DNA of 17,995 nucleotides from a virus. Each line of letters starts with the position of its first letter. Within the stretch, counting starts at the first letter, position 1. Where the stretch lies: UHGV virus genome UHGV-0163678; one strand, written 5' to 3'. Shown piece by piece: positions 1,624 through 17,740 of this stretch. Position numbers and translations under genes: made by a program. The notes under the pieces were generated by a model. It was not told the origin of the DNA. It did not search any database and saw nothing but the letters and a program-made list of their open reading frames with translations.

Positions 1624-2340
<717 letters not shown>

Positions 2341-2775: not shown

Positions 2776-3072
2776 ATGGAACGAACAAGTTACAGCAAAC
2801 TATCACAGCGTGACGTTGATCGCGCAGAAACTGATTTACTCATCAACCTGTCAACGCTTACCCAGCGCGGTCTGGCAAAGATGATTGGCTGTCATGAATC
2901 GAAGATAAGCAGAACGGACTGGAGATTTATTGCTTCGGTCTTGTGTGCTTTCGGAATGGCATCAGACATCAGTCCGATTAGCAGGGCTTTTAAGTATGCG
3001 CTTGATGAAATCACAAAGAAAAAATCCCCGGCCGCCACCGAGGATTTTAAGCAAATTGATATGCAATTCTGA
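2776..3072 (+). CDS. CII-like transcriptional activator (non-lambda allele)
   Basis: 98-aa ORF in the cII position. The C-terminal tail [17 protein letters not shown] parallels the lambda CII tail KKRPAATERSEQIQMEF as recalled; the rest is divergent. Confidence 0.65.
2786..2799 (-). promoter_or_regulatory. Candidate CII-binding site of a pRE-like promoter (TTGC-N6-TTGT on the minus strand)
   Basis: Direct tetranucleotide repeat with 6-bp spacing just inside the 5' end of the cII-like gene, oriented toward cro and cI, as at lambda pRE. Confidence 0.35.
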
Positions 3073-3104
3073 GGTCATTACTGGATCAATCCACAGGAGT
3101 AATT

Positions 3105-3251
3105 ATGACAAAACAACTCAGTCCTTACCAGGACAAAATTCACAAACACATACTACGTGATCGCTTCCTGTCCAGCTTCAAGCAGCCTGGTCGATTCCGG
3201 GCTGAGTTGGAAAAAGTGAAGCTGATGCAGAAGGAGAAAGGTCATGAGTAA
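3105..3251 (+). CDS. Small hypothetical ORF (48 aa) between cII-like and O-like genes
   Basis: ATG sits at the position homologous to the lambda O start, after the conserved GGTCATTACTGGATC junction. Reads [21 protein letters not shown]... and ends 8 nt inside the O-like gene. Below the ORF-track size cutoff; found by manual translation. Confidence 0.3.
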
Positions 3252-4104
3252 TCTTGCAACCGTAACACATTTAAGGCCTTCACAACGGCCTGTGGAGCGT
3301 CGTGTGGCAGAAGTTGAAGATGGTTATACCCGTCTTGCAAATGCCCTGTATGAAGAGCTTATCGGCGCAGATTTAACAAAAAATCAGAGTAAGGTTGCCC
3401 ACGCCATATGCCGTAAAACATACGGATACGGTAAAAAGATGGATCGCATCTCTGATAGTCAGTTAGCTCAAATTACCAGGCTGCCAAGACAGAAGGTAAA
3501 CAAGGCCAAGAATGAGCTTATCGCGATGAAGGTAATCCTTCGCGAAGGCCAGCAAATCGGGCCTAACAAGAACATCGAGGAATGGCAAATCGAAGGGTGT
3601 CACTACTCTGGTGATAATGTCACTGCATTGGTGACAAAAAGTGTCACCAAAACGGTGACAGCGCTGTCACCAAAACAGGGACACACAAAAGAAACTATTA
3701 CAAAAGAAAAAAGAAATAATAAAAACACTATGTCCGAAAGTGTTCGGACGGAGTGTGAAAAATCATCTGACCGTCACGAAGAAACCGACAAGGCATTCGA
3801 GGAAATATTCTGGTGTGCAGGCATGCGGAAAGCCGGGAAAAAAAACGCAGCTTCGGCATTCAGAACACAGTTCAGGGAATGGCGTAAAACTACCAGGGGT
3901 ACGGCAAGCGAGTTTGCCACGATGCTGGCAGAAGACATCGCATGCAGGAATGGTAAGCAGTTCGGATTCGACAGGTTGTTACCATCGAGCTACTTGAACG
4001 GTCAGCGCTGGAACGACGAAAAGCCAGAAACCATTCAACCACAATCCAAACCATCATCCGCAATCACCGTATCGAAAACTGGCTACGTGTTTTTCGACAG
4101 GTGA
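3244..4104 (+). CDS. Replication initiator, lambda O-like (origin-binding N-terminal domain; divergent C-terminal domain)
   Basis: 286 aa. N-terminal region aligns with lambda O as recalled (DGYxRLxNxL...GADLTKxQxKV...RKTYGxxKxMDRIxDSQL...GPNKNIxEW). Iterons and an AT-rich tract lie inside the gene, as at ori-lambda. Confidence 0.8.
3605..3730. repeat. Putative replication origin: dyad-symmetric iterons (GTGACA-N5-TGTCAC type) followed by an AT-rich tract
   Basis: Repeats such as GTGACAAAAAGTGTCAC (3631..3647), GGTGACAGCGCTGTCACC (3654..3671) and two GTCACCAAAAC units, followed by AAAAGAAACTATTACAAAAGAAAAAAGAAATAATAAAAAC. Same architecture as ori-lambda but a different iteron sequence. Confidence 0.6.
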
Positions 4105-4211
4105 ACCATGAAATCAAAAATCAAATCGCTACTGGTCGCTGGTTATAACCACGGCTGGTTAAGTATTTCGTTTGTCGATTTCTGGTTTAAAAATCTCAAT
4201 CTGAGGGAATC

Positions 4212-6092
4212 ATGAGGCCAAGTGAACTTAGCGACCTGCTTTGGGCGCAGGTTGACAGGGTGGCTCCGCACCTGTTGCCAAATGGCAAGAAAGAGGGGCA
4301 TGAGTGGGTTGCCGGTAACGTCAACGGTGACAAGGGAAACAGCCTTAAGGTCAACCTTAGCGGCAAGAAAAAATGGGCTGATTTCGCTGAGGGAGACGGC
4401 GGTGACATGCTTGATTTGTGGATGGCATGTCGTGGAATTAACCTGCATCAGGCTATGCAGGAAGCGAAAGCATTTCTCGGTATCAAGGATGACGATCACC
4501 ATTTCGATGCCAGACGTGAGAAGAAATTCTCCAGACCTGATCGCAAGAAAATCGCCCGCTACGTTACCAGAACAGAATCCCATCTTGAGTACCTGCAATC
4601 GCGTGGCATATCGCCAGAAGTCGTAAAGCGCTACGAGGTTGTCAGCGGCAAGGTGTGGAATGGAGAACGAGAACTGGATGCTCTGGTGCTTCCGTACAAA
4701 CGCGATGGTGAGTTGTTGCAGGTCAAGCGAATCAGCACTGAGCGCCCGGACGGGAAGAAAGTCATTATGGCAGAAGGTGATTGCGAACCTTGTCTGTTCG
4801 GATGGCAGGCTCTGGACGCTGGCGTGAGGGCGGTTGTGCTTTGCGAAGGCGAAATTGATTGTATGAGCTATGCGCAATACGGCATCTCGGCATTATCCGT
4901 GCCGTTTGGTGGAGGGAAAGGCGCTAAGCAACAGTGGATTGAGTTTGAGTATCACAACCTCGACAGGTTTGAGGAAATATTCATCTCGATGGACGTTGAT
5001 GATGTTGGTCGTGAAGCCGCAAGGGAAATCGCAAGCCGACTCGGTGAACATCGTTGCCGTCTTGTTACTCTGCCGTACAAAGACATCAACGAATGCCTGA
5101 TGAACGGTGTTACCGATGATGAAATCTGGCAGTACATCGGCACGGCATCCTACTTCGATCCTGAAGAACTCTACAGCGCGCGAGAGTTTTACCAGGACAC
5201 TATCAACGCTTTCTACGGCAAGCAGCAGTATCTGTTTAATCCACCGTGGGAATCTCTGGCAGATAAATTCCAGTTCCGTGAGGCCGAGTTGACGCTGGTC
5301 AATGGTGTGAACGGTCACGGAAAAACGGAGGTTGTCGGGCATATGGCACTTGAGGCAATGCGTCAGGGTGTGAAGACGTGCATCGCGTCACTTGAGCTGA
5401 AGCCAGGCATTCTCCTTAAGCGACTTACCCGTCAGGCGACGTGCTGCAAGATGCCGCCAGTGCTGGAAATTGACTCTGCATTTAAATTTTATGACGAAAG
5501 ACTTTGGGTGTTTGGCCTGACCGGAACGGCGAAAGCCGACAGGCTGATCGAAATATTCGACTACGCTCGCCGCCGATACGGCATCCAGTTATTCATCATC
5601 GACAGCCTGATGAAATGTGGCATAGGCGACGATGACTATAACGGGCAGAAGGCGTTTGTTGACTCGATTTGCGACTTCAAAAACAAAACAAACTCCCACG
5701 TCATTCTCGTTACTCACTCGCGAAAAGGAGACAGCGAAGAAAAACCAACCGGGAAAATGGACGTAAAAGGTTCTGGAGCGATAACAGACCTGACAGACAA
5801 CCTTTTCATCATCTGGCGTAACAAGGCTCGCGAGAGAGCGTTACAGAGAGTTCAGAGTGGTGAAAAGATGTCAGAGAAGGACGAACAGCTACTGGCATCT
5901 CCGGCATCTGTTTTGATGCTTGAAAAACAACGTAACGGCGAAGGTTGGGAAGGTGGTGTCCCGTTGTTCCTTGACGAGCAATCGCACCAGTTCCTGCAAC
6001 TTGAATCAGGATCGCCATATAGCTACATCGCCAATATGCCGAAATCGGAATATGACGAGGCGTGGCGACAGGAAAACGTGACGGAGTATTAA
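4212..6092 (+). CDS. Putative bifunctional primase-helicase (TOPRIM-like primase region with a C-terminal DnaB/RecA-like helicase domain)
   Basis: 626 aa. Acidic motifs typical of TOPRIM (VLCEGEIDCMSY, MDVDDVGREAA); Walker A-like GVNGHGKTEV and Walker B-like LFIIDSLMK. Occupies the position of lambda P, downstream of the O-like gene. Confidence 0.75.
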   Translation: MRPSELSDLLWAQVDRVAPHLLPNGKKEGHEWVAGNVNGDKGNSLKVNLSGKKKWADFAEGDGGDMLDLWMACRGINLHQAMQEAKAFLGIKDDDHHFDARREKKFSRPDRKKIARYVTRTESHLEYLQSRGISPEVVKRYEVVSGKVWNGERELDALVLPYKRDGELLQVKRISTERPDGKKVIMAEGDCEPCLFGWQALDAGVRAVVLCEGEIDCMSYAQYGISALSVPFGGGKGAKQQWIEFEYHNLDRFEEIFISMDVDDVGREAAREIASRLGEHRCRLVTLPYKDINECLMNGVTDDEIWQYIGTASYFDPEELYSAREFYQDTINAFYGKQQYLFNPPWESLADKFQFREAELTLVNGVNGHGKTEVVGHMALEAMRQGVKTCIASLELKPGILLKRLTRQATCCKMPPVLEIDSAFKFYDERLWVFGLTGTAKADRLIEIFDYARRRYGIQLFIIDSLMKCGIGDDDYNGQKAFVDSICDFKNKTNSHVILVTHSRKGDSEEKPTGKMDVKGSGAITDLTDNLFIIWRNKARERALQRVQSGEKMSEKDEQLLASPASVLMLEKQRNGEGWEGGVPLFLDEQSHQFLQLESGSPYSYIANMPKSEYDEAWRQENVTEY

Positions 6093-6362
6093 ATGAATAA
6101 AAAACAATTAGCCATTCTCGAAAAGGCATGGGATGCACAAATATCATACGCTTTGAAAGAACAGGCACTACCAATAATCCAGACCAAATCGAAAATAGCC
6201 AGGCAGTTATGCGATGACGGATTCCTGAACGAAGTTGAGATTACGCGCCAGATGGTAACGTTCAAAGGGTATGAGATAAATCATCATGGTATAGCGGCGT
6301 ATTGCTCCCATCTTCCTGATGACGTTGGCATTGATGAAATGGAAAGGGAGATGAAGCAATGA
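6093..6362 (+). CDS. Hypothetical protein
   Basis: 89-aa ORF whose ATG directly follows the primase-helicase stop codon (TAAATG). Confidence 0.5.
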   Translation: MNKKQLAILEKAWDAQISYALKEQALPIIQTKSKIARQLCDDGFLNEVEITRQMVTFKGYEINHHGIAAYCSHLPDDVGIDEMEREMKQ

Positions 6363-7036: not shown

Positions 7037-7439
7037 CGCCATAGACGCAATACTCTCACTTCCGATCGACGACAGGTCACCTCACGAAGTCCACATTAAA
7101 GAACCAAAGCGGAGCAATCCTCAAAACCGCCTTATGTGGGCGTTATTGCAGGACGTATCACGTCAGGTGCTTTGGCATGGACAGAGACTTGCGCCGGAGG
7201 ACTGGAAAGACCTGTTCACTGCCCTGTGGCTTAAGACCAAAAAACTGGAGCAACGAAGTGTGTCTGGTATCGACGGTGGCGTAGTCATGCTTGGCGTGCG
7301 TACCAGCAAAATGCGAAAGGCCAGCATGACTGAGCTTATCGAAATCATGTTCTGGTTCGGCTCAGAGCGCAACGTGCGGTGGAGTGATGACTCCCGGCGA
7401 GAGTATGAATGGTCACAACGAAAAGGGAAGGCTGCATGA
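6993..7439 (+). CDS. ninB: NinB-like recombination protein
   Basis: 148 aa. Shares conserved blocks with lambda NinB as recalled (QNRxxWAxLxDVSRQVxWHG, FGxERxVxWSDE). First recognisable gene of the nin region. Confidence 0.75.
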   Translation: MKQIYILRNEAIRNNAIDAILSLPIDDRSPHEVHIKEPKRSNPQNRLMWALLQDVSRQVLWHGQRLAPEDWKDLFTALWLKTKKLEQRSVSGIDGGVVMLGVRTSKMRKASMTELIEIMFWFGSERNVRWSDDSRREYEWSQRKGKAA

Positions 7440-7963
7440 CTATCAAATCAAATACGCCAGCACACGACAAGGACTGCTGGCAAACGCCGCTTTGGCTTTT
7501 TGATGCACTGGATATTGAGTTTGGATTCTGGCTGGATTCGGCAGCGAGCGACAAAAATGCTCTGTGTGCTCACTGGCTAACTGAGGCCGACGACGCGCTC
7601 AATTCTGAGTGGGTAAGCCACGGTGCAATCTGGAATAACCCACCGTACAGCAATATCAGGCCGTGGGTGGAAAAAGCCGCTGAGCAGTGCATACAACAGC
7701 GACAGACGGTAGTGATGCTTGTGCCAGAGGATATGTCAGTCGGATGGTTCAGCAAGGCTCTGGAGAGTGTCGACGAAGTTCGCATTATCACTGATGGACG
7801 GATTAATTTTATCGAACCATCGACAGGGCTGGAGAAGAAGGGAAACAGCAAAGGCTCCATGCTGCTGATTTGGCGACCGTTCATCAGTCCTCGACGGATG
7901 TTTACTACCGTATCCAAAGCGGCATTGATGGCGATCGGGCAGGGCGTCAGGAGGGCGGCATGA
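7436..7963 (+). CDS. Phage-type DNA N6-adenine methyltransferase (Dam-like), orphan
   Basis: NPPY catalytic motif ([10 protein letters not shown]). ATGA overlap with the ninB stop; an alternative in-frame start lies at 7409. No adjacent restriction endonuclease gene. Confidence 0.75.
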
Positions 7964-8498: not shown

Positions 8499-8674
8499 TG
8501 CTTAGTCCATCCCAATCCCTTCAATACCAGAAAGAAAGCGTCGAGCGAGCTTTAACGTGCGCTAACTGCGGTCAGAAGCTGCATGTGCTGGAAGTTCACG
8601 TGTGCTCAGATTGCTGCGCAGAACTGATGAGCGATCCGAATAGCTCAATGTACGAGGAAGAAGACGATGGCTAA
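8498..8674 (+). CDS. ninF: NinF
   Basis: 58 aa, [36 protein letters not shown]..., matching lambda NinF as recalled. Found by manual translation, below the ORF-track cutoff. Confidence 0.7.
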   Translation: MLSPSQSLQYQKESVERALTCANCGQKLHVLEVHVCSDCCAELMSDPNSSMYEEEDDG

Positions 8675-9233
8675 ACCAGCGCGAAGACGATGTAACCGTA
8701 AAAGAGAAGATTTAACTGTTAAAAGGATATTTGAGTTACTAAGTTTCGATAAATCCACCGGGGTATTTAGATGGAAAGTTCCCACTCAGGGAAGGATATC
8801 ATTAAATAGTATTGCTGGAACTTTTGATTCCAACGGTTATTCAATGATCATGATAGATGGGCGTAGATATAAAACTCACGTCTTAGTTTTTTACATAACT
8901 CATAATCGTTGGCCTGCTGGTCAAATTGACCACGTTAATGGAATTAGGACCGACAATAGGCCAGAAAATTTAAGAGAATGCCTGCCAATAGAAAATTCAA
9001 GAAATATAAGGATCCGAAAGAATAGCAAATCAGGTTGCAGAGGAGTTACTTGGCACAAACGACAGAAAAAATGGAATGTTAGGCTAGGTTTCCATGGCAA
9101 GAGTAAACACTTCGGATGCTTTGATGATCTGGAGTTAGCGGTACTAGTTGCTGAAGAAGCCCGAGATAAGTATTACGGTGATTTTTCCGGCAACGAAAGG
9201 AGCACTTATGCGAATCTATCGAAGGAAATGTAA
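8667..9233 (+). CDS. HNH homing endonuclease with AP2-like DNA-binding domain
   Basis: HNH signature ([17 protein letters not shown]) and an AP2-like segment ([33 protein letters not shown]). Markedly AT-rich by eye. Its N-terminus MAKPARRRC mimics the lambda NinG N-terminus as recalled. Confidence 0.8.
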
Positions 9234-12712: not shown

Positions 12713-13141
12713 ATGAATATGGCGACTGAACCAAAAGCTGGTCGCCCCTCTGATTATATGCCGGAGGTGGCTGACGATATCTGCTCGTTGCTTTCTTCTG
12801 GCGAAAGTTTGCTGAAAGTATGTAAGCGTCCTGGTATGCCGGATAAGTCCACTGTTTTCCGCTGGCTGGCAAAGCATGAGGATTTTCGCGACAAGTACGC
12901 GAAGGCAACTGAGGCACGAGCTGATTCTATTTTCGAAGAGATATTCGAAATTGCTGACAATGCGATTCCAGATGCTGCTGAGGTGGCAAAGGCAAGACTT
13001 CGCGTTGATACCCGCAAATGGGCGCTGGCCCGAATGAATCCCCGTAAGTATGGCGACAAGGTAACTAACGAACTTGTCGGCAAAGACGGCGGCGCAATCC
13101 AGATTGAAACATCACCGATGAGCACTCTATTCGGAAAATGA
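12713..13141 (+). CDS. Terminase small subunit
   Basis: 142-aa ORF immediately upstream of, and overlapping, the large terminase gene, directly after the lysis cassette. Confidence 0.65.
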   Translation: MNMATEPKAGRPSDYMPEVADDICSLLSSGESLLKVCKRPGMPDKSTVFRWLAKHEDFRDKYAKATEARADSIFEEIFEIADNAIPDAAEVAKARLRVDTRKWALARMNPRKYGDKVTNELVGKDGGAIQIETSPMSTLFGK

Positions 13142-14553
13142 CCTCGATTAATCCTATCTTTGAACCGTTCATTGAGGCGCATCGCTACAAAGTCGCCAAA
13201 GGCGGTCGAGGTAGCGGTAAATCATGGGCAATTGCGAGGCTGCTTGTTGAGGCGGCGCGTCGGCAGCCTGTGCGTATTCTCTGCGCTCGTGAACTGCAAA
13301 ACAGTATCAGCGATTCGGTAATCCGGTTGCTTGAAGACACCATAGAGCGGGAAGGGTATTCGGCTGAGTTTGAAATTCAGCGTTCAATGATCCGTCATCT
13401 CGGAACGAATGCTGAATTCATGTTCTACGGCATAAAAAACAACCCTACGAAGATTAAATCGCTCGAAGGCATTGATATCTGCTGGGTGGAAGAAGCGGAA
13501 GCGGTAACAAAGGAATCGTGGGATATCCTGATACCAACCATCCGCAAGCCGTTTTCCGAAATATGGGTGAGCTTTAACCCGAAGAACATACTCGACGATA
13601 CCTATCAGCGATTCGTTGTAAATCCTCCCGATGATATTTGTCTGCTGACGGTGAACTACACCGACAATCCGCATTTTCCTGAAGTTCTCCGTCTGGAGAT
13701 GGAAGAGTGTAAACGCAGAAACCCGACACTGTATCGTCACATCTGGCTTGGTGAGCCAGTAAGCGCAAGTGATATGGCAATCATCAAACGTGAATGGCTT
13801 GAAGCCGCAACCGATGCGCACAAGAAACTCGGATGGAAAGCGAAAGGCGCTGTTGTCTCTGCGCATGACCCATCAGATACAGGGCCAGATGCTAAAGGTT
13901 ATGCATCGCGTCACGGTTCGGTAGTTAAGCGCATTGCCGAAGGTCTGCTGATGGATATCAACGAGGGTGCTGACTGGGCAACTTCGCTGGCGATTGAAGA
14001 CGGCGCTGACCACTACCTGTGGGATGGTGATGGTGTTGGTGCTGGGCTACGCAGACAGACAACGGAAGCGTTCTCCGGCAAGAAAATCACCGCCACGATG
14101 TTCAAGGGCAGCGAATCGCCATTCGATGAAGATGCACCATATCAGGCCGGAGCATGGGCCGATGAAGTCGTACAGGGCGACAACGTTCGCACTATTGGTG
14201 ATGTGTTCCGCAATAAGCGAGCACAATTCTATTACGCGCTGGCTGACAGGCTGTATCTGACATATCGGGCGGTTGTTCACGGTGAGTATGCAGACCCCGA
14301 CGACATGCTGAGTTTCGACAAAGAAGCGATAGGCGAGAAGATGCTGGAGAAGCTGTTTGCAGAACTGACGCAGATTCAGCGCAAATTCAATAACAACGGG
14401 AAGCTTGAGCTAATGACTAAGGTCGAAATGAAGCAGAAGCTCGGTATTCCATCTCCTAACCTGGCTGATGCGCTGATGATGTGTATGCATTGCCCGGAGT
14501 CGGCTGCGCAACCCGACTATTCCAGTTACTCAATTCCTTGTGGTGTAGGTTGA
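13138..14553 (+). CDS. Terminase large subunit (ATPase and nuclease)
   Basis: 471 aa. Walker A motif near the N-terminus (AKGGRGSGKS), acidic Walker B-like WVEEAEA, and a C-terminal domain with conserved acidic residues. Confidence 0.9.
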   Translation: MTSINPIFEPFIEAHRYKVAKGGRGSGKSWAIARLLVEAARRQPVRILCARELQNSISDSVIRLLEDTIEREGYSAEFEIQRSMIRHLGTNAEFMFYGIKNNPTKIKSLEGIDICWVEEAEAVTKESWDILIPTIRKPFSEIWVSFNPKNILDDTYQRFVVNPPDDICLLTVNYTDNPHFPEVLRLEMEECKRRNPTLYRHIWLGEPVSASDMAIIKREWLEAATDAHKKLGWKAKGAVVSAHDPSDTGPDAKGYASRHGSVVKRIAEGLLMDINEGADWATSLAIEDGADHYLWDGDGVGAGLRRQTTEAFSGKKITATMFKGSESPFDEDAPYQAGAWADEVVQGDNVRTIGDVFRNKRAQFYYALADRLYLTYRAVVHGEYADPDDMLSFDKEAIGEKMLEKLFAELTQIQRKFNNNGKLELMTKVEMKQKLGIPSPNLADALMMCMHCPESAAQPDYSSYSIPCGVG

Positions 14554-14554
14554 T

Positions 14555-16753
14555 ATGGCAGAAAAAAAGATGACTGACTGGCATCGCAAGGTGCTGTGCA
14601 ACTTTGATAATGCCTGGTCAGCAACGCAGGATATGCGTGAGCAGATTATTGAGGCTCAACGTTTCGTCCGGGTGTCCGGCGCACAGTGGGAAGGCAGCAC
14701 AAACGCTGGTTACTCATTTGATGAAGGCAGGTTTGAGCATTACCCGCGCTTTGAACTGAATAAGATTGCCCGTGAATGTGATCGCATCATTGGCGAGTAT
14801 CGACAGAATCGCATCAGCGTTAAATTCAGGCCGAAGGATGACAAGGCATCGGAAGCGTTAGCCGAAAAGATGAACGGCAAATTCCGCGCTGATTATCAGG
14901 AAACATCCGGTGGCGAAGCGTGTGATAACGCATTTGATGATGCTGTAACGGGCGGATTCGGTTGTTTCCGCATGTGTGCTGATTACGAAGATGAAATGGA
15001 TCCGAGTAACGAGCAACGCCGTATAAGCCTTCTCCCTGTTTACGACCCAGCGACATGCGTCTTCTTTGATCAGGACAGCAAGCAATATGACCGCTCTGAT
15101 GCTATGTGGGCTATGGAAATGTTCTCCATGACGCCTAAAGCGTTCGAGGCTGAATACCCTGATTCCATCGCGGCAAGCCTTTCTCGTGATGACACTGGTA
15201 CTCAGTATGACTGGTCAACGCCTGACGCCATCTATGTTGGACGCTACTACGAAGTCCGCATAGAGAAGGTGAAGCTCACAGCATGGCGTAACCCTGTCAG
15301 CGGAGAAACGGCAATCTATGATGAAGAGCAAATCAAAGATATTGTCGACGAGCTGACCGATGGTGCATTCGAACTGATTGGCGAGCGAACGGTGAAGAAA
15401 CGCCGAGTTTATTGCGGTCTTCTGTCTGGCGCTGAATGGCTGGAAGAACCGAAGCGTATTCCGGGCGAACATATTCCTCTCATCCCGGTATATGGGCGTC
15501 GTTCATTTGTTGATAATCAGGAGCGAATCGAAGGCCACGCAGCAAAAGCGATGGATGCACAGCGTCTTGAGAACCTGATGGTTTCCATGATTGCAGATAA
15601 CGCCACTCAGGCTGGCGGTGATGGCATTCCTATCGTGGATGTTGATTTCATTCCCGGCCCATTAATGAACCACTGGGCAGAGAGGAATAAGAAAAGACCT
15701 GCAGTTCTTCCTATGACCAGCAAGAAGGACAAAAACGGAACGGTCATTTCAGAGGCTCAGGTTGCTGGCTGGACACCTCCGACACAAATGCCTCCAGCTC
15801 TTGCAGGGCTATTGCAGTACACCGGAACGGCTATTCAGCAAATTACAGGTGCGTCGCAGCTTGAGAACATGCCGAGCAACGTCGCTACCGATACCGTTGA
15901 TAGCATCTTTAACCGGATGGACACGCAGTCCTATATCTACATGGACAACATGGCTAAATCCATGCGCCGTGCTGGCGTCGTGTGGCTTTCTATGGCTCGT
16001 GAAGTCTATGGCAGCGATACGCCAATGCGCATCGTTAATGAGGATGACAGCGATGACGTGGCGCTGATGACTGGTGAAGTGGTTGACCGTCAGACAGGGC
16101 AGGTTATCGCGCTTAACGACCTTTCGCAGGGTAACTATGAAGTGACTGTCGATGTCGGTCAGTCGTTCGCTACTCGCCGTGATGCAACGGTTAAGTCGTT
16201 ACTTTCCATGCTGGCACTTATCCCGCCAGGAACGCCGAAGCATGACCTTGTATCGTCGATGATTCTCGACAATATGGACGGCGAAGGGATGGACGACCTG
16301 AAAGAATACAACCGCAATCAGTTGCTTCTGTCTGGCGTTATCAAGCCGAGAACGCCTGAAGAACAGCAAATGGTTGAGCAGGCGAAACAACAACAGGCCA
16401 GTCAGCCAGATCCGGCTATGGTTGCAGCGCAAGGTCAGCTTCTTGCAGGTCAGGCTGAATTGCAGAAAGCGCAGAACGAACAGGCAGCCATTCAGGTTAA
16501 AGCATTCCAGGCACAGACTGATGCTCAGGTTGCAGCGGCAAACGTTGTGAAAATCCTCGCATCTGCCGATAGCCAGCAGAAATCTGATATCCGCGAGGCT
16601 CTGAAACTGCTCGGACAGTTCCAGCAACAGCAAGGAGACAATGCCCGTGCTGATGCAGAGCTTGTCCTGAAAAGTCAGGCACAGGGTCATGCGCAGCGCA
16701 TGGACATCAGCAGCATCCTGCAAAAATCAACTCAGCAACAACCACAGCAGTAA
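14555..16753 (+). CDS. Portal protein (P22/Sf6-like, with C-terminal Gln-rich helical extension)
   Basis: 732-aa ORF immediately after the large terminase. Size and the glutamine-rich alpha-helical C-terminal ~120 residues resemble P22-type portals. Confidence 0.8.
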   Translation: MAEKKMTDWHRKVLCNFDNAWSATQDMREQIIEAQRFVRVSGAQWEGSTNAGYSFDEGRFEHYPRFELNKIARECDRIIGEYRQNRISVKFRPKDDKASEALAEKMNGKFRADYQETSGGEACDNAFDDAVTGGFGCFRMCADYEDEMDPSNEQRRISLLPVYDPATCVFFDQDSKQYDRSDAMWAMEMFSMTPKAFEAEYPDSIAASLSRDDTGTQYDWSTPDAIYVGRYYEVRIEKVKLTAWRNPVSGETAIYDEEQIKDIVDELTDGAFELIGERTVKKRRVYCGLLSGAEWLEEPKRIPGEHIPLIPVYGRRSFVDNQERIEGHAAKAMDAQRLENLMVSMIADNATQAGGDGIPIVDVDFIPGPLMNHWAERNKKRPAVLPMTSKKDKNGTVISEAQVAGWTPPTQMPPALAGLLQYTGTAIQQITGASQLENMPSNVATDTVDSIFNRMDTQSYIYMDNMAKSMRRAGVVWLSMAREVYGSDTPMRIVNEDDSDDVALMTGEVVDRQTGQVIALNDLSQGNYEVTVDVGQSFATRRDATVKSLLSMLALIPPGTPKHDLVSSMILDNMDGEGMDDLKEYNRNQLLLSGVIKPRTPEEQQMVEQAKQQQASQPDPAMVAAQGQLLAGQAELQKAQNEQAAIQVKAFQAQTDAQVAAANVVKILASADSQQKSDIREALKLLGQFQQQQGDNARADAELVLKSQAQGHAQRMDISSILQKSTQQQPQQ

Positions 16754-16843: not shown

Positions 16844-17740
16844 ATGGACCAGATGGCAGAAAACACACCAGAAGTTGAAATCGAAACCGACGCGTCAGAG
16901 CAGATTCCTGATGATGTCGAACTGGCTGAAGAAGTCGAAACAGCAGATGGCAGTGAGTCCTCAGGAAATGATGCAGAGGAAGCTACTGACACTGATGACG
17001 ACGAATCAGAACAGGAATTCTACTTTGGTGACGAAAAGCTGGATTCGCCAACCAGCGAAGATGGCGCAGAGCATGGACTGGTAAAACACTTGCGCAAGAC
17101 GATTAAAGAGAAAGACCGTGAGCTGAAAGAGCTGATGCGTCAGTCTCAGAAACCCGTCGAGCAGCAGCCGGTAATCACTCAACCACCGCGAATGCCAAAA
17201 CTGGATGATGAGGACATCGGTTTCGATGAAGAAATCTATCAGCAACGCATGGCTAAGTGGGCAGAGGATAACGGCAAATACCAGGAGCAAGTACGAGAGC
17301 GGAAACGAGAGGAAGAGGCGCGTACCGCAACGCTTCAGCAGAAAGCAGCCAATTACATGCATAGAGTAAAAGCACTGAAAGTGGCTGGTTACCAGGATGC
17401 AGAGCAGGCTGTACGCGAAGATGTTCCTGTTCACATTCAGGACATGATCCTTCTTGAGTCAGAGAAGCCGGAAATCGTTGTTCTGGCACTCGGTCGCAAC
17501 GCTGAACTGCGCAAGCAACTGGCAGAAGCTACCAACCCCGTAGCAATTGGTCGTCTGCTGGAACGTATCGAATCGAAGGCCAGAATCATGCCAAAAGCAA
17601 AAACCACGGCAGCCACAACCCCGACAGTTAAGGGGAGCAACGGCGCAGTAATCAATAACCTCGACAAACTTCTCGAAAAAGCGCGCGACACCGGTGATTA
17701 CACCGAATACCGGGCGGCGAAGAACAAAGCTAAAAAATAA
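16844..17740 (+). CDS. Scaffolding protein
   Basis: 298 aa, highly acidic N-terminal region, extended charged coiled-coil-like segments and a basic C-terminus, between the portal and coat genes. Confidence 0.65.
   Translation: MDQMAENTPEVEIETDASEQIPDDVELAEEVETADGSESSGNDAEEATDTDDDESEQEFYFGDEKLDSPTSEDGAEHGLVKHLRKTIKEKDRELKELMRQSQKPVEQQPVITQPPRMPKLDDEDIGFDEEIYQQRMAKWAEDNGKYQEQVRERKREEEARTATLQQKAANYMHRVKALKVAGYQDAEQAVREDVPVHIQDMILLESEKPEIVVLALGRNAELRKQLAEATNPVAIGRLLERIESKARIMPKAKTTAATTPTVKGSNGAVINNLDKLLEKARDTGDYTEYRAAKNKAKK

Follow-up and report, generated by a model that had tools for sequence, protein, structure and literature searches.

The 626-aa protein encoded at 4212..6092 of the window, the 17,995-nucleotide stretch of DNA analysed here, is probably the phage's own replicative primase–helicase, which would replace lambda P together with host DnaB (and DnaC) and probably, though less certainly, DnaG. 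The source of the window is a P22-like lambdoid prophage, and the gene lies at the position of lambda P. The initial annotation placed a primase–helicase here, after an O-like initiator, and this assignment is borne out by sequence, profile and predicted structure. The domain search that it proposed as a check finds both the primase and the helicase fold (Toprim_2, AAA_25, PHROG 239 and the T7 gp4 fold). The features of the locus are collected in Table 1.

Table 1. Features of the initiator and primase–helicase locus, in window coordinates.
Feature	Position	Strand	Basis
O-like replication initiator gene, 286 aa	3244..4104	+	Pfam Phage_rep_O aa 20-114, E=1e-37; PHROG 277
Origin-binding (winged-helix) N-terminal domain, aa 1-157	3244..3714	+	49% identity to lambda O
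Four origin iterons, 19-20 bp, inside O gene	3598..3683		repeat search
A/T-rich tract, presumed DNA-unwinding element	3684..3729		80% A+T versus 52% in whole window
Initiator C-terminal domain, aa 158-286, presumed partner-recruiting module	3715..4101	+	PHROG 33384
C-terminal 12-residue peptide of initiator, candidate docking motif	4066..4101	+	shared ending
Conserved 35-aa ORF, MKSKIKSLLVAGYNHGWLSISFVDFWFKNLNLRES	4108..4215	+	PHROG 21848, E=4e-26; ES18 gp60 counterpart
T7 gp4/Twinkle-type bifunctional primase–helicase gene, 626 aa	4212..6092	+	ATG to stop codon, Pfam, PHROG, structure
DnaG-type zinc-ribbon-like domain without zinc ligands, aa 1-92	4212..4487	+	model, fold search, hhalign
Primase RNA-polymerase domain, aa ~105-318	4524..5165	+	Toprim_2; T7 residue alignment
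TOPRIM within primase domain, aa 209-296	4836..5099	+	Pfam Toprim_2
SF4 (RecA-fold) helicase domain, aa ~340-598	5229..6005	+	AAA_25, DnaB_C, hhalign, Foldseek
Walker A GVNGHGKT, aa 365-372	5304..5327	+	K371 = T7 K318 = DnaB K237
Walker B LFIIDS, aa 460-465	5589..5606	+	D464 = T7 D424 = DnaB D343
Arginine-finger motif K-Q-R-N-G, aa 572-576	5925..5939	+	same as E. coli DnaB 440-444
C-terminal tail, acidic near end, last residue Tyr, aa 599-626	6006..6089	+	pLDDT, family alignment

Fold and active sites of the primase–helicase

The profile PHROG 239 ('DNA primase/helicase') covers residues 5–622 of the protein with an E-value of 4e-171. The Pfam matches are Toprim_2 (E=3e-12), AAA_25 at residues 357–507 and DnaB_C at residues 355–594, the last of which falls under the gathering score (23.8 versus 27 bits). 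Against PDB sequences, phmmer matches T7 gp4 at about 1e-23 and Twinkle at 8e-14, and the hhalign comparison with T7 gp4 gives a probability of 99.9% (E=2.5e-35). The AlphaFold model has a pLDDT of 92.1, and its best Foldseek matches are the full-length T7 gp4 chains 5ikn, 6n9x and 1q57 (E about 1e-27); further matches are to Twinkle and DnaB, with the Twinkle entries 8e2l, 7t8b and 7t8c recovered in sequence as well as in structure. Primase and helicase are fused in a single polypeptide, primase first, with a predicted overall fold like that of gp4. Judged by sequence and model, the product belongs to the T7 gp4/Twinkle family. No convincing internal in-frame start for a helicase-only, gp4B-like isoform is present within the gene.

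Residue conservation was counted over 124 diverse representatives of the family (34–62% identity), and profile alignments were used to place the T7 arginine finger and some of the primase lysines, which pairwise and MAFFT alignments misplaced. The helicase domain aligns with E. coli DnaB by hhalign (E=9e-11) and has the SF4 Walker A (G365..G370-K371-T372) and Walker B motifs, together with the catalytic Glu, the H3 His and the arginine finger. K371, the catalytic E395, D464 and the H3 residue H502 are invariant (124/124), and R574, which lies opposite DnaB R442 in the profile alignment, is kept in 117 of the 124. In the Min27 homologue, Walker A is the insertion point of an intein. The C-terminal tail is variable or missing in distant relatives; its pLDDT falls to 40–50 in the final two ten-residue blocks and is below 50 at residues 617–619 and 621–626. 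A likeness to the polymerase-binding tail of T7 gp4 would be speculation by analogy.

In the primase half, the TOPRIM motifs are E212-G-E214-x-D216, D261-x-D263 and K290-D291-x-N293-E294. The T7 residues R84, K122, K128 and E157 align with R131, K172, K182 and E212, and D161, D207, D209 and D237 align with D216, D261, D263 and D291. The acidic residues E212, D216, D261, D263 and D291 are kept in 116–123 of the 124 relatives; taken together with K172 and K182, the range is 99–123. Thus, the TOPRIM-like acidic motifs and the Walker A and B motifs reported in the initial annotation are all located and near-invariant.

The N-terminal domain has a confident model (pLDDT 90 for residues 1–92), and a fold search with this model returns the DnaG zinc-binding domains 1d0q and 2au3 as the only real matches. 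The hhalign comparison with E. coli DnaG gives P=6e-5 and places G35, N38, D57 and E60 opposite the DnaG residues C40, H43, C61 and C64. This kinship is revealed solely by these two comparisons; searching PDB sequences with the N-terminal 95–100 residues, either as a single sequence or as a profile, returns nothing meaningful. There is no conserved Cys or His in the domain among the 124 relatives, so the Cys4 (or Cys-His-Cys2) set of the zinc ribbon in the gp4/Twinkle class is absent while the fold is retained. All four zinc ligands of the DnaG-type fold are lost family-wide. The loss is compatible with membership of the gp4/Twinkle family because metazoan Twinkle shares it, and it sets this group apart from the canonical phage enzymes. 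The Cys4 zinc-binding domain of T7 and plant Twinkle has been implicated in template recognition (PMC5737085); with the ligands lost, primer synthesis by the 626-aa protein is therefore not assured.

The initiator, its origin and the linked small ORF

The upstream gene belongs to PHROG 277 ('replication initiation O-like'). Residues 1–157 of its product align with residues 1–155 of lambda O at 49% identity (E=2e-42) and with the N-terminus of ES18 gp59 at 48%. The four iterons inside the gene are TGTCAC-N7/8-GTGACA-like palindromes spaced by 20–24 bp, unlike the ATCCCTC..GAGGGA repeats of lambda, and the A/T-rich tract that follows them is near-identical to that following the lambda iterons. 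The gene thus combines a Phage_rep_O winged-helix domain, iterons and an internal A/T-rich tract, as expected of a lambda O-type initiator. The C-terminal half, which the initial annotation described as unlike lambda O, indeed shows no significant alignment to lambda O over residues 158–286, so that a lambda-type P-binding C-terminal domain is absent.

The same annotation suggested that this half is suited to a different partner, and the suggestion gains support from the linkage of the domain to the primase–helicase. The C-terminal domain is 96–97% identical in ES18, Min27 and locus L086, where it stands behind differing N-terminal domains: it follows a lambda-type domain in ES18, the window-type domain in the window and unrelated domains in Min27 and L086. 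At least four different N-terminal domains are joined to it, and the primase–helicase lies downstream in ES18, the window, Min27 and L086 alike. The primase–helicase follows the C-terminal domain in 75 of 75 IMG/VR loci that extend far enough downstream. The genes of distant relatives of the enzyme also come immediately after that of a winged-helix initiator, and ATGA coupling is frequent among them. An iterative profile search for the C-terminal domain among the initiators of these distant members stalled at five sequences, so a pattern seen there by eye (F..FW..YP.K / ..LNG.RW) is only suggestive. Within the Enterobacterales clade, the initiators upstream of the primase–helicase have a common ending, ...VS(K/N/Q)xG(Y/L)V(F/Y).., and a ...VSKxGYVF-type ending is present even in otherwise unrelated initiators (loci L087, L190 and L185/L090). 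From this co-occurrence, the terminal peptide may serve as a docking motif.

The 108 nt that separate O from the helicase gene, passed over in the initial annotation, contain the conserved 35-codon ORF, whose TGA overlaps the primase–helicase ATG (ATGA); from this overlap, the 35-aa protein is predicted to be translationally coupled to the helicase. The protein, with a GYNHG core, is kept alongside primase–helicases down to 60% identity, also behind unrelated initiators, and its co-occurrence suggests that it perhaps has a role with the enzyme. Initiator C-terminus, small ORF and helicase gene are thus genetically linked, and their products may be in physical contact. Downstream of the helicase gene, an 89-aa ORF (6093..6362, PHROG 2239) was considered as a part of the module and rejected because only 2 of 35 related loci have it. 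The window holds no tRNA genes, and no polymerase gene is seen in it.

Comparison with known systems

The module of O-like initiator and T7 gene-4-type primase–helicase is already known and common. In ES18 (GenBank AY736146), gp59, gp60 and gp61 form the same module, annotated in 2005 with gp61 as "putative primase/helicase; similar to T7 gene 4". The layouts are the same, an orthologous three-gene module with the origin inside the O-like gene: gp61 is 94% identical to the 626-aa protein, the C-terminal domain of gp59 is 96% identical, and the gp60 counterparts differ at 2 of 35 positions. The modules part in the N-terminal domain of O, which in ES18 and epsilon34 is about 94% identical to that of lambda O and should therefore share the lambda iteron specificity; the domain of the window is only 48–49% identical to lambda O and ES18 and goes with other iterons. 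The module is also found in epsilon34, g341c, mEp043, Sf101 and vB_EcoP-720R6, in many further Enterobacterales prophages and in Stx2 phages, Min27 and phi24B among them; out of 5,426 complete genomes of E. coli, 296 (~5%) have the primase–helicase gene. A 2023 paper sets out the arrangement explicitly, and later papers on P22-like phages describe the module of O-like initiator and T7-gp4-like primase–helicase. In the accessible text of two papers on Stx-phage replication-unit ('Eru') types, neither Min27 nor phi24B is named and a gp4-like primase–helicase paired with an O-like initiator is not described. We found no biochemical or genetic study of this primase–helicase family in the literature. 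Three details deduced from the sequences, the loss of the zinc ligands, the coupled 35-aa protein and the shared terminal peptide of the initiators, are without a description that we could find in records or literature.

T7 gp4 is the best structural match (TM up to 0.75 on the target) at an identity of about 21–26%. The domain order of gp4A is the same (zinc-ribbon fold, RNA-polymerase/TOPRIM, linker, SF4 helicase) and the same catalytic residues align. However, T7 gp4 has four Cys zinc ligands, whereas the window protein has none and its N-terminal domain is nearer to the longer zinc-binding domain of bacterial DnaG. The family also has its own insertion at about residues 539–565, and, unlike T7 gene 4, the window gene is in a temperate phage, beside an O-type initiator and with no polymerase gene in the window. 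Metazoan mitochondrial Twinkle is likewise a gp4-family ring helicase with a zinc-domain-like region that lacks the coordinating cysteines (PMC5737085).

Regarding lambda itself, the operon position (cII – O – partner – nin), the homologous N-terminal domain of O and the four iterons followed by the A/T-rich tract within O are shared. Lambda P recruits host DnaB; it is a non-enzymatic loader that captures the helicase, whereas the unrelated window protein is itself a predicted helicase. P22 provides a parallel in genes 18 and 12, where a lambdoid phage follows its O-like initiator with an SF4 replicative helicase of its own and no P-type loader. P22 gp12 is of the DnaB type and has no primase fused to it, whereas the window protein carries one, and the enzyme of ES18-type modules has been called 'nonhomologous' to gp12 (PMC10307801).

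Proposed mechanism, alternatives and implications

A working model can be proposed for replication with the phage's own primase–helicase. The O-like initiator would bind the four iterons inside its own gene and open the adjacent lambda-like A/T-rich tract. Its C-terminal module, possibly via the terminal ...VSKTGYVFF, would then recruit the primase–helicase, perhaps helped by the co-translated 35-aa protein. Like T7 gp4, the ring helicase would load on the exposed single strand with no loader of the DnaC or P type, and would unwind the DNA by NTP hydrolysis. The TOPRIM primase would make RNA primers, which host DNA polymerase III would extend, given that the window shows no polymerase gene. 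Replication on these lines would be independent of host DnaB and DnaC, and probably of DnaG, the last being the weakest part of the reading because the zinc-binding domain has no zinc ligands.

This weakness is the basis of the main alternative, which we regard as unlikely, that the protein serves as the replicative helicase only: as in human Twinkle, the primase half would bind DNA or act as a scaffold without catalysis, and priming would stay with host DnaG. The family-wide absence of the four ligands in a domain implicated in template recognition agrees with this, as does the absence of primase activity in the cysteine-less metazoan Twinkle (PMC5737085; PMC9860392); P22 gp12, the helicase of another lambdoid phage, acts together with host DnaG (Wickner 1984, cited in PMC8022706). 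However, metazoan Twinkle has also lost the catalytic residues of its RNA-polymerase domain, and it is difficult to see why they would be near-invariant in the family of the window protein if they took no part in catalysis. The domain without zinc ligands is strongly conserved and confidently folded, and therefore probably functional. Furthermore, Pfam finds no DnaB N-terminal helical domain (PF00772), the part of DnaB that binds DnaG, and the N-terminal half of the protein is occupied by the primase.

We give almost no credence to the view that the protein is a lambda P analogue, an adaptor for the recruitment and loading of host DnaB that takes no part in unwinding the fork. The gene does occupy the P position in the operon, and some GenBank records (Min27, phi24B) label it 'P', but the label reflects position only. 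BLASTP finds no match of the protein to lambda P, the Pfam search finds no Phage_lambda_P domain, and the SF4 active site is complete, including the arginine finger, and strongly conserved. It is only slightly less improbable that the gene has an accessory or selfish function, such as plasmid-type priming or a superinfection or defence factor, with replication by O and host proteins only. O-only modules do exist, as 34 of the 314 Enterobacterales lambdoid phages in one study encode an O homologue and no helicase or loader (Genome Research 2025). Here, however, linkage of the gene to the C-terminal module of the initiator is tight and specific, in the early-right operon it has O on one side and the nin region on the other, and genes of the family are targets of inteins and homing endonucleases, which is typical of essential replication genes.

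As a discovery the finding carries little weight, because the module was annotated in 2005, later published and is present in ~5% of complete E. coli genomes. For annotation, the 'P' label in several Stx-phage records wrongly implies a lambda-like need for host DnaB. The module also makes a convenient experimental system: its natural chimeras reveal the part of the initiator that goes with the helicase, and the combination of a zinc-less ribbon with an intact TOPRIM site could help to define the contribution of the zinc-binding domain to priming. The primase, if active, would be of the DnaG/gp4 type and would recognize templates without a metal-bound zinc ribbon. We tentatively raise the possibility that the three parts form a self-contained origin-activation cassette, undescribed as such: an interchangeable winged-helix initiator with a ...VSKxGYVF docking peptide, a co-translated 35-aa protein and a gp4-like primase–helicase whose zinc-ribbon domain works without zinc. 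Lambda needs the DnaK chaperones to release P. If the proposal is true, the cassette would free prophages from DnaB, DnaC and DnaG and from these chaperones.

Primase and helicase domains

The gene following the O-like initiator runs from ATG through stop codon as an ORF of 626 aa, the length given in the initial annotation. Its reading there as a primase–helicase is upheld by sequence, profile and structural comparisons, which find both a primase and a helicase fold. In Pfam, the protein matches Toprim_2 at aa 209–296 (E=3e-12) together with AAA_25 and, below threshold, DnaB_C, and PHROG family 239, 'DNA primase/helicase', spans aa 5–622 (E=4e-171). The PDB sequence search matches T7 gp4 (5ikn, 6n7i, 1q57) at E about 1e-23 and Twinkle (8e2l) at 8e-14. 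When 91 diverse family members are combined into a profile, it matches T7 gp4 at 99.9% probability (E=2.5e-35, residues 124–538) and E. coli DnaB at E=9e-11. The AlphaFold model, built on the family alignment, has a mean pLDDT of 92.1; among its PDB matches, Foldseek ranks full-length T7 gp4 chains highest (E about 1e-27, TM up to 0.75 on target), ahead of Twinkle and then DnaB helicases. The gene is thereby confirmed, and its interpretation is supported.

We compared the active-site residues with those of T7 gp4 and DnaB. The primase motif residues R84, K122 and K128 of T7 correspond to R131, K172 and K182, and the TOPRIM acidic residues E157, D161, D207, D209 and D237 to E212, D216, D261, D263 and D291. 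Walker A K318, the catalytic E343, Walker B D424 and H465 of motif H3 correspond to K371, E395, D464 and H502, and the arginine finger R442 of DnaB corresponds to R574, in an identical K-Q-R-N-G motif. These positions are kept in 99–124 of 124 family representatives that share just 34–62% identity with the window protein; thus, purifying selection appears to act on both catalytic centres.

Across the family, the first 90 residues show strong conservation (LLPNGK..G.EW..G...G..G.SL.V.L.G.K.W.DFA.G..GDLLDLW), and no column of this part of the family alignment holds a conserved Cys or His. Modelled alone, the domain adopts a confident fold (pLDDT 90), and the only structures that it meaningfully matches are the bacterial DnaG zinc-binding domains 1d0q (TM 0.57) and 2au3 (TMq 0.64), all other hits having E above 2. 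PDB sequence and profile searches with the domain do not detect this relationship; hhalign against the E. coli DnaG N-terminus gives P=6e-5, significant as a single comparison, and aligns the DnaG zinc ligands C40, H43, C61 and C64 to G35, N38, D57 and E60. Therefore, the family as a whole retains the DnaG-type zinc-ribbon fold but none of its four zinc ligands. The Cys4 ribbon of T7 and plant Twinkle is implicated in template recognition, and metazoan Twinkle, without the cysteines and the catalytic residues of the RNA-polymerase domain, has no primase activity (PMC5737085; PMC9860392). The window family likewise lacks the zinc ligands but, unlike metazoan Twinkle, retains the catalytic residues. 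Because they are retained, the balance tilts towards primase activity, yet of all the inferred functions this is the least certain.

Initiator, origin and neighbouring genes

The window derives from a P22-like lambdoid phage or prophage, from the part of the genome with early-right, late-regulatory, lysis and head genes (see the table).

Coordinates of features in the window
Feature	Position	Strand	Remarks
Overlapping gene pair	821-1192, 1179-1616	minus	directly downstream of cI; PHROG 6136 and 5893, function unknown
cI-like repressor	1624..2337	minus	
cro, then cII			between cI-like repressor and O-like gene
O-like gene	3244..4104		Phage_rep_O domain
Four palindromic iterons	3598-3683		19-20 bp, TGTCAC...GTGACA
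A/T-rich tract	3684-3729		80% A+T, directly after iterons
35-aa ORF	4108..4215		product MKSKIKSLLVAGYNHGWLSISFVDFWFKNLNLRES; stop codon overlaps helicase start
Primase–helicase	4212..6092	plus	626 aa
NinB, Dam-type methylase, HNH endonuclease, NinG, NinI-like phosphatase, Q, lysis genes			3' of primase–helicase, in this order
Dam-type N6-adenine DNA methyltransferase	7409-7963		directly after NinB; Pfam Dam, E=8e-65
HNH endonuclease	8667-9233		nin region, just 5' of NinG with slight overlap; PHROG 99, E=2e-71
Large ORFs	12713..13141, 13138..14553, 14555..16753, 16844..17740		read as terminase, portal and scaffold genes from position and size

The gene pair beside cI occupies the position of lambda rexA/rexB and is a candidate for a role in exclusion or defence, expressed from the prophage.

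Residues 1–157 of O are 49% identical to lambda O, and the remaining 129 residues show no lambda O alignment, in line with the earlier remark that the C-terminal half is unlike lambda O. The A/T-rich tract, which also codes for a conserved linker of O, is nearly identical in DNA to that of lambda (lambda locus 1220-1265), whereas divergence has affected both the flanking O coding sequence and the iterons, which are quite different from those of lambda. Judged by sequence, the origin has lambda ori architecture with a different predicted iteron specificity.

The C-domain of O is found behind several N-domains. In ES18 gp59 (AY736146), the N-domain is of lambda type, with 94% identity to lambda O (see also PMC2629481), and the C-domain is 96% identical to that of window O. 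Phage Min27 (EU311208) has an unrelated helix-turn-helix N-domain before a window-type C-domain (97%, tblastn), and locus L086 has yet another. The primase–helicase lies downstream in all three, and it is present in all 75 C-domain loci with at least 2 kb downstream (80 IMG/VR loci in total), which are close relatives and not independent observations; lambda P is found in none of these 75. The same C-domain and primase–helicase thus recur together behind different N-domains, as expected if the C-terminal half of O tracks a different partner, which the initial annotation had proposed. In the phage collection, DNA shared with Stx phages begins at window ~3720, just beyond the iterons and inside the A/T-rich tract, where a recombination joint between the halves of O would be expected. 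In Min27 (2109-2881 of its locus), the annotated O of 222 aa ends out of frame, and the C-domain runs on in another frame to position 2881 (tblastn); either sequencing or annotation has introduced a frameshift, or the gene is really disrupted.

The 35-aa protein has an invariant GYNHG-like core and is conserved down to primase–helicases 60% identical, behind unrelated initiators, which places it with the helicase and not with O. A downstream 89-aa ORF was rejected as a module member (2/35 loci). In L039, a free-standing 164-aa HNH homing-endonuclease-like gene (4498-4992; ...EVNHINGDKSDN...) lies directly 5' of the primase–helicase. The gene also occurs in L051, L054 and three more IMG/VR loci, in otherwise near-identical phages; in other loci, the 35-aa ORF adjoins the primase–helicase start codon in its place.

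The primase–helicase family comprises 853 clusters at 50% identity (E <=1e-30). Distant relatives (32–78% identical) lie directly 3' of a 230–350 aa winged-helix protein (HTH_36, MarR-like, Phage_rep_O or DUF1376), frequently with an ATGA stop/start overlap. In a sample taken from one genome per bacterial species, together with the IMG/VR loci and ES18, almost all initiators upstream of the Enterobacterales clade (primase–helicase at least 66% identical) end in ...(I/V)x(V/I)S(K/N/Q)xG(Y/L)V(F/Y)(F/I/Y)(D)(R), even where neither initiator half is detectably related to window O (L087, L190, L185/L090). The C-terminal end of lambda O differs. From this co-occurrence, the peptide is a candidate docking peptide.

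Intein-like inserts and annotation of relatives

Gene 'P' of Min27 (2995-5903 of its locus) and phi24B is the same primase–helicase, carrying between Walker A K371 and T372 an intein-like insert of ~331 aa with LAGLIDADG-type motifs (ACPLNE...VATHN, followed by T); a frameshift near aa 512 separates 'ORF31, putative DNA primase'. The label 'P' is positional and misleading. In family members of 900–1050 aa (representatives P0139, P0154, P0182, P0239; P0147, P0181, P0191, P0216, P0230, P0266), the match to the query is split in two, either at residue ~372 (Walker A) or immediately ahead of the TOPRIM EGE motif, at ~209; this suggests two recurrent intein insertion sites. In vB_EcoP-720R6 (ON470605), the closest phage record, the gene (3702-5601) is split between two annotated CDS, 3702-5330 and 5377-5601, implying a frameshift, small deletion or sequencing error.

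The primase–helicase replication module is already known and common. The ES18 record annotates gp59 as lambda gpO-like with a 'rep_origin similar to lambda ori', and gp61 as 'putative primase/helicase; similar to phage T7 gene 4'. Near-identical genes in mEp043, Sf101, vB_EcoP-720R6, SEN22 and many Stx2 phages are called 'DNA primase/helicase' or 'toprim domain-containing protein', and the gene is found at >=95% identity in 296 of 5,426 complete E. coli genomes. Our literature search found no experimental study of the primase–helicase or its host-factor dependence. Three modest observations concern features of which we found no description in the database records or literature searched: the zinc-binding domain without zinc ligands, the 35-aa protein coupled to the helicase, and the C-terminal peptide that initiators share. 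The 35-aa ORF itself does have an annotation (ES18 gp60, PHROG 21848), with its function given as unknown.

Proposed origin activation and host factors

In the best-supported reading, O would bind the iterons and open the A/T-rich tract, and its C-terminal module would recruit the gp4-like ring helicase. By analogy with T7 gp4, which loads itself onto single-stranded DNA, the helicase would self-load; it would then unwind and prime, and host Pol III would extend the primers. In lambda, a DnaK/DnaJ/GrpE step frees DnaB from P.

Given the retained primase residues, and despite the missing zinc ligands, we regard a helicase-only protein working with primers from host DnaG as unlikely. An accessory, non-replicative role is very improbable for a gene that accompanies the C-domain of O so regularly, and a P-like loader, for a protein with T7 gp4-like fold and active sites, is also very improbable. 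O homologues alone, with no helicase or loader, occur in 34 of 314 Enterobacterales lambdoid phages (PMC12315714), a useful contrast to the window module, which has its own helicase. If the self-loading scheme is true, P, DnaB and DnaC would be dispensable for this phage, as would probably DnaG and plausibly the DnaK/DnaJ/GrpE step.
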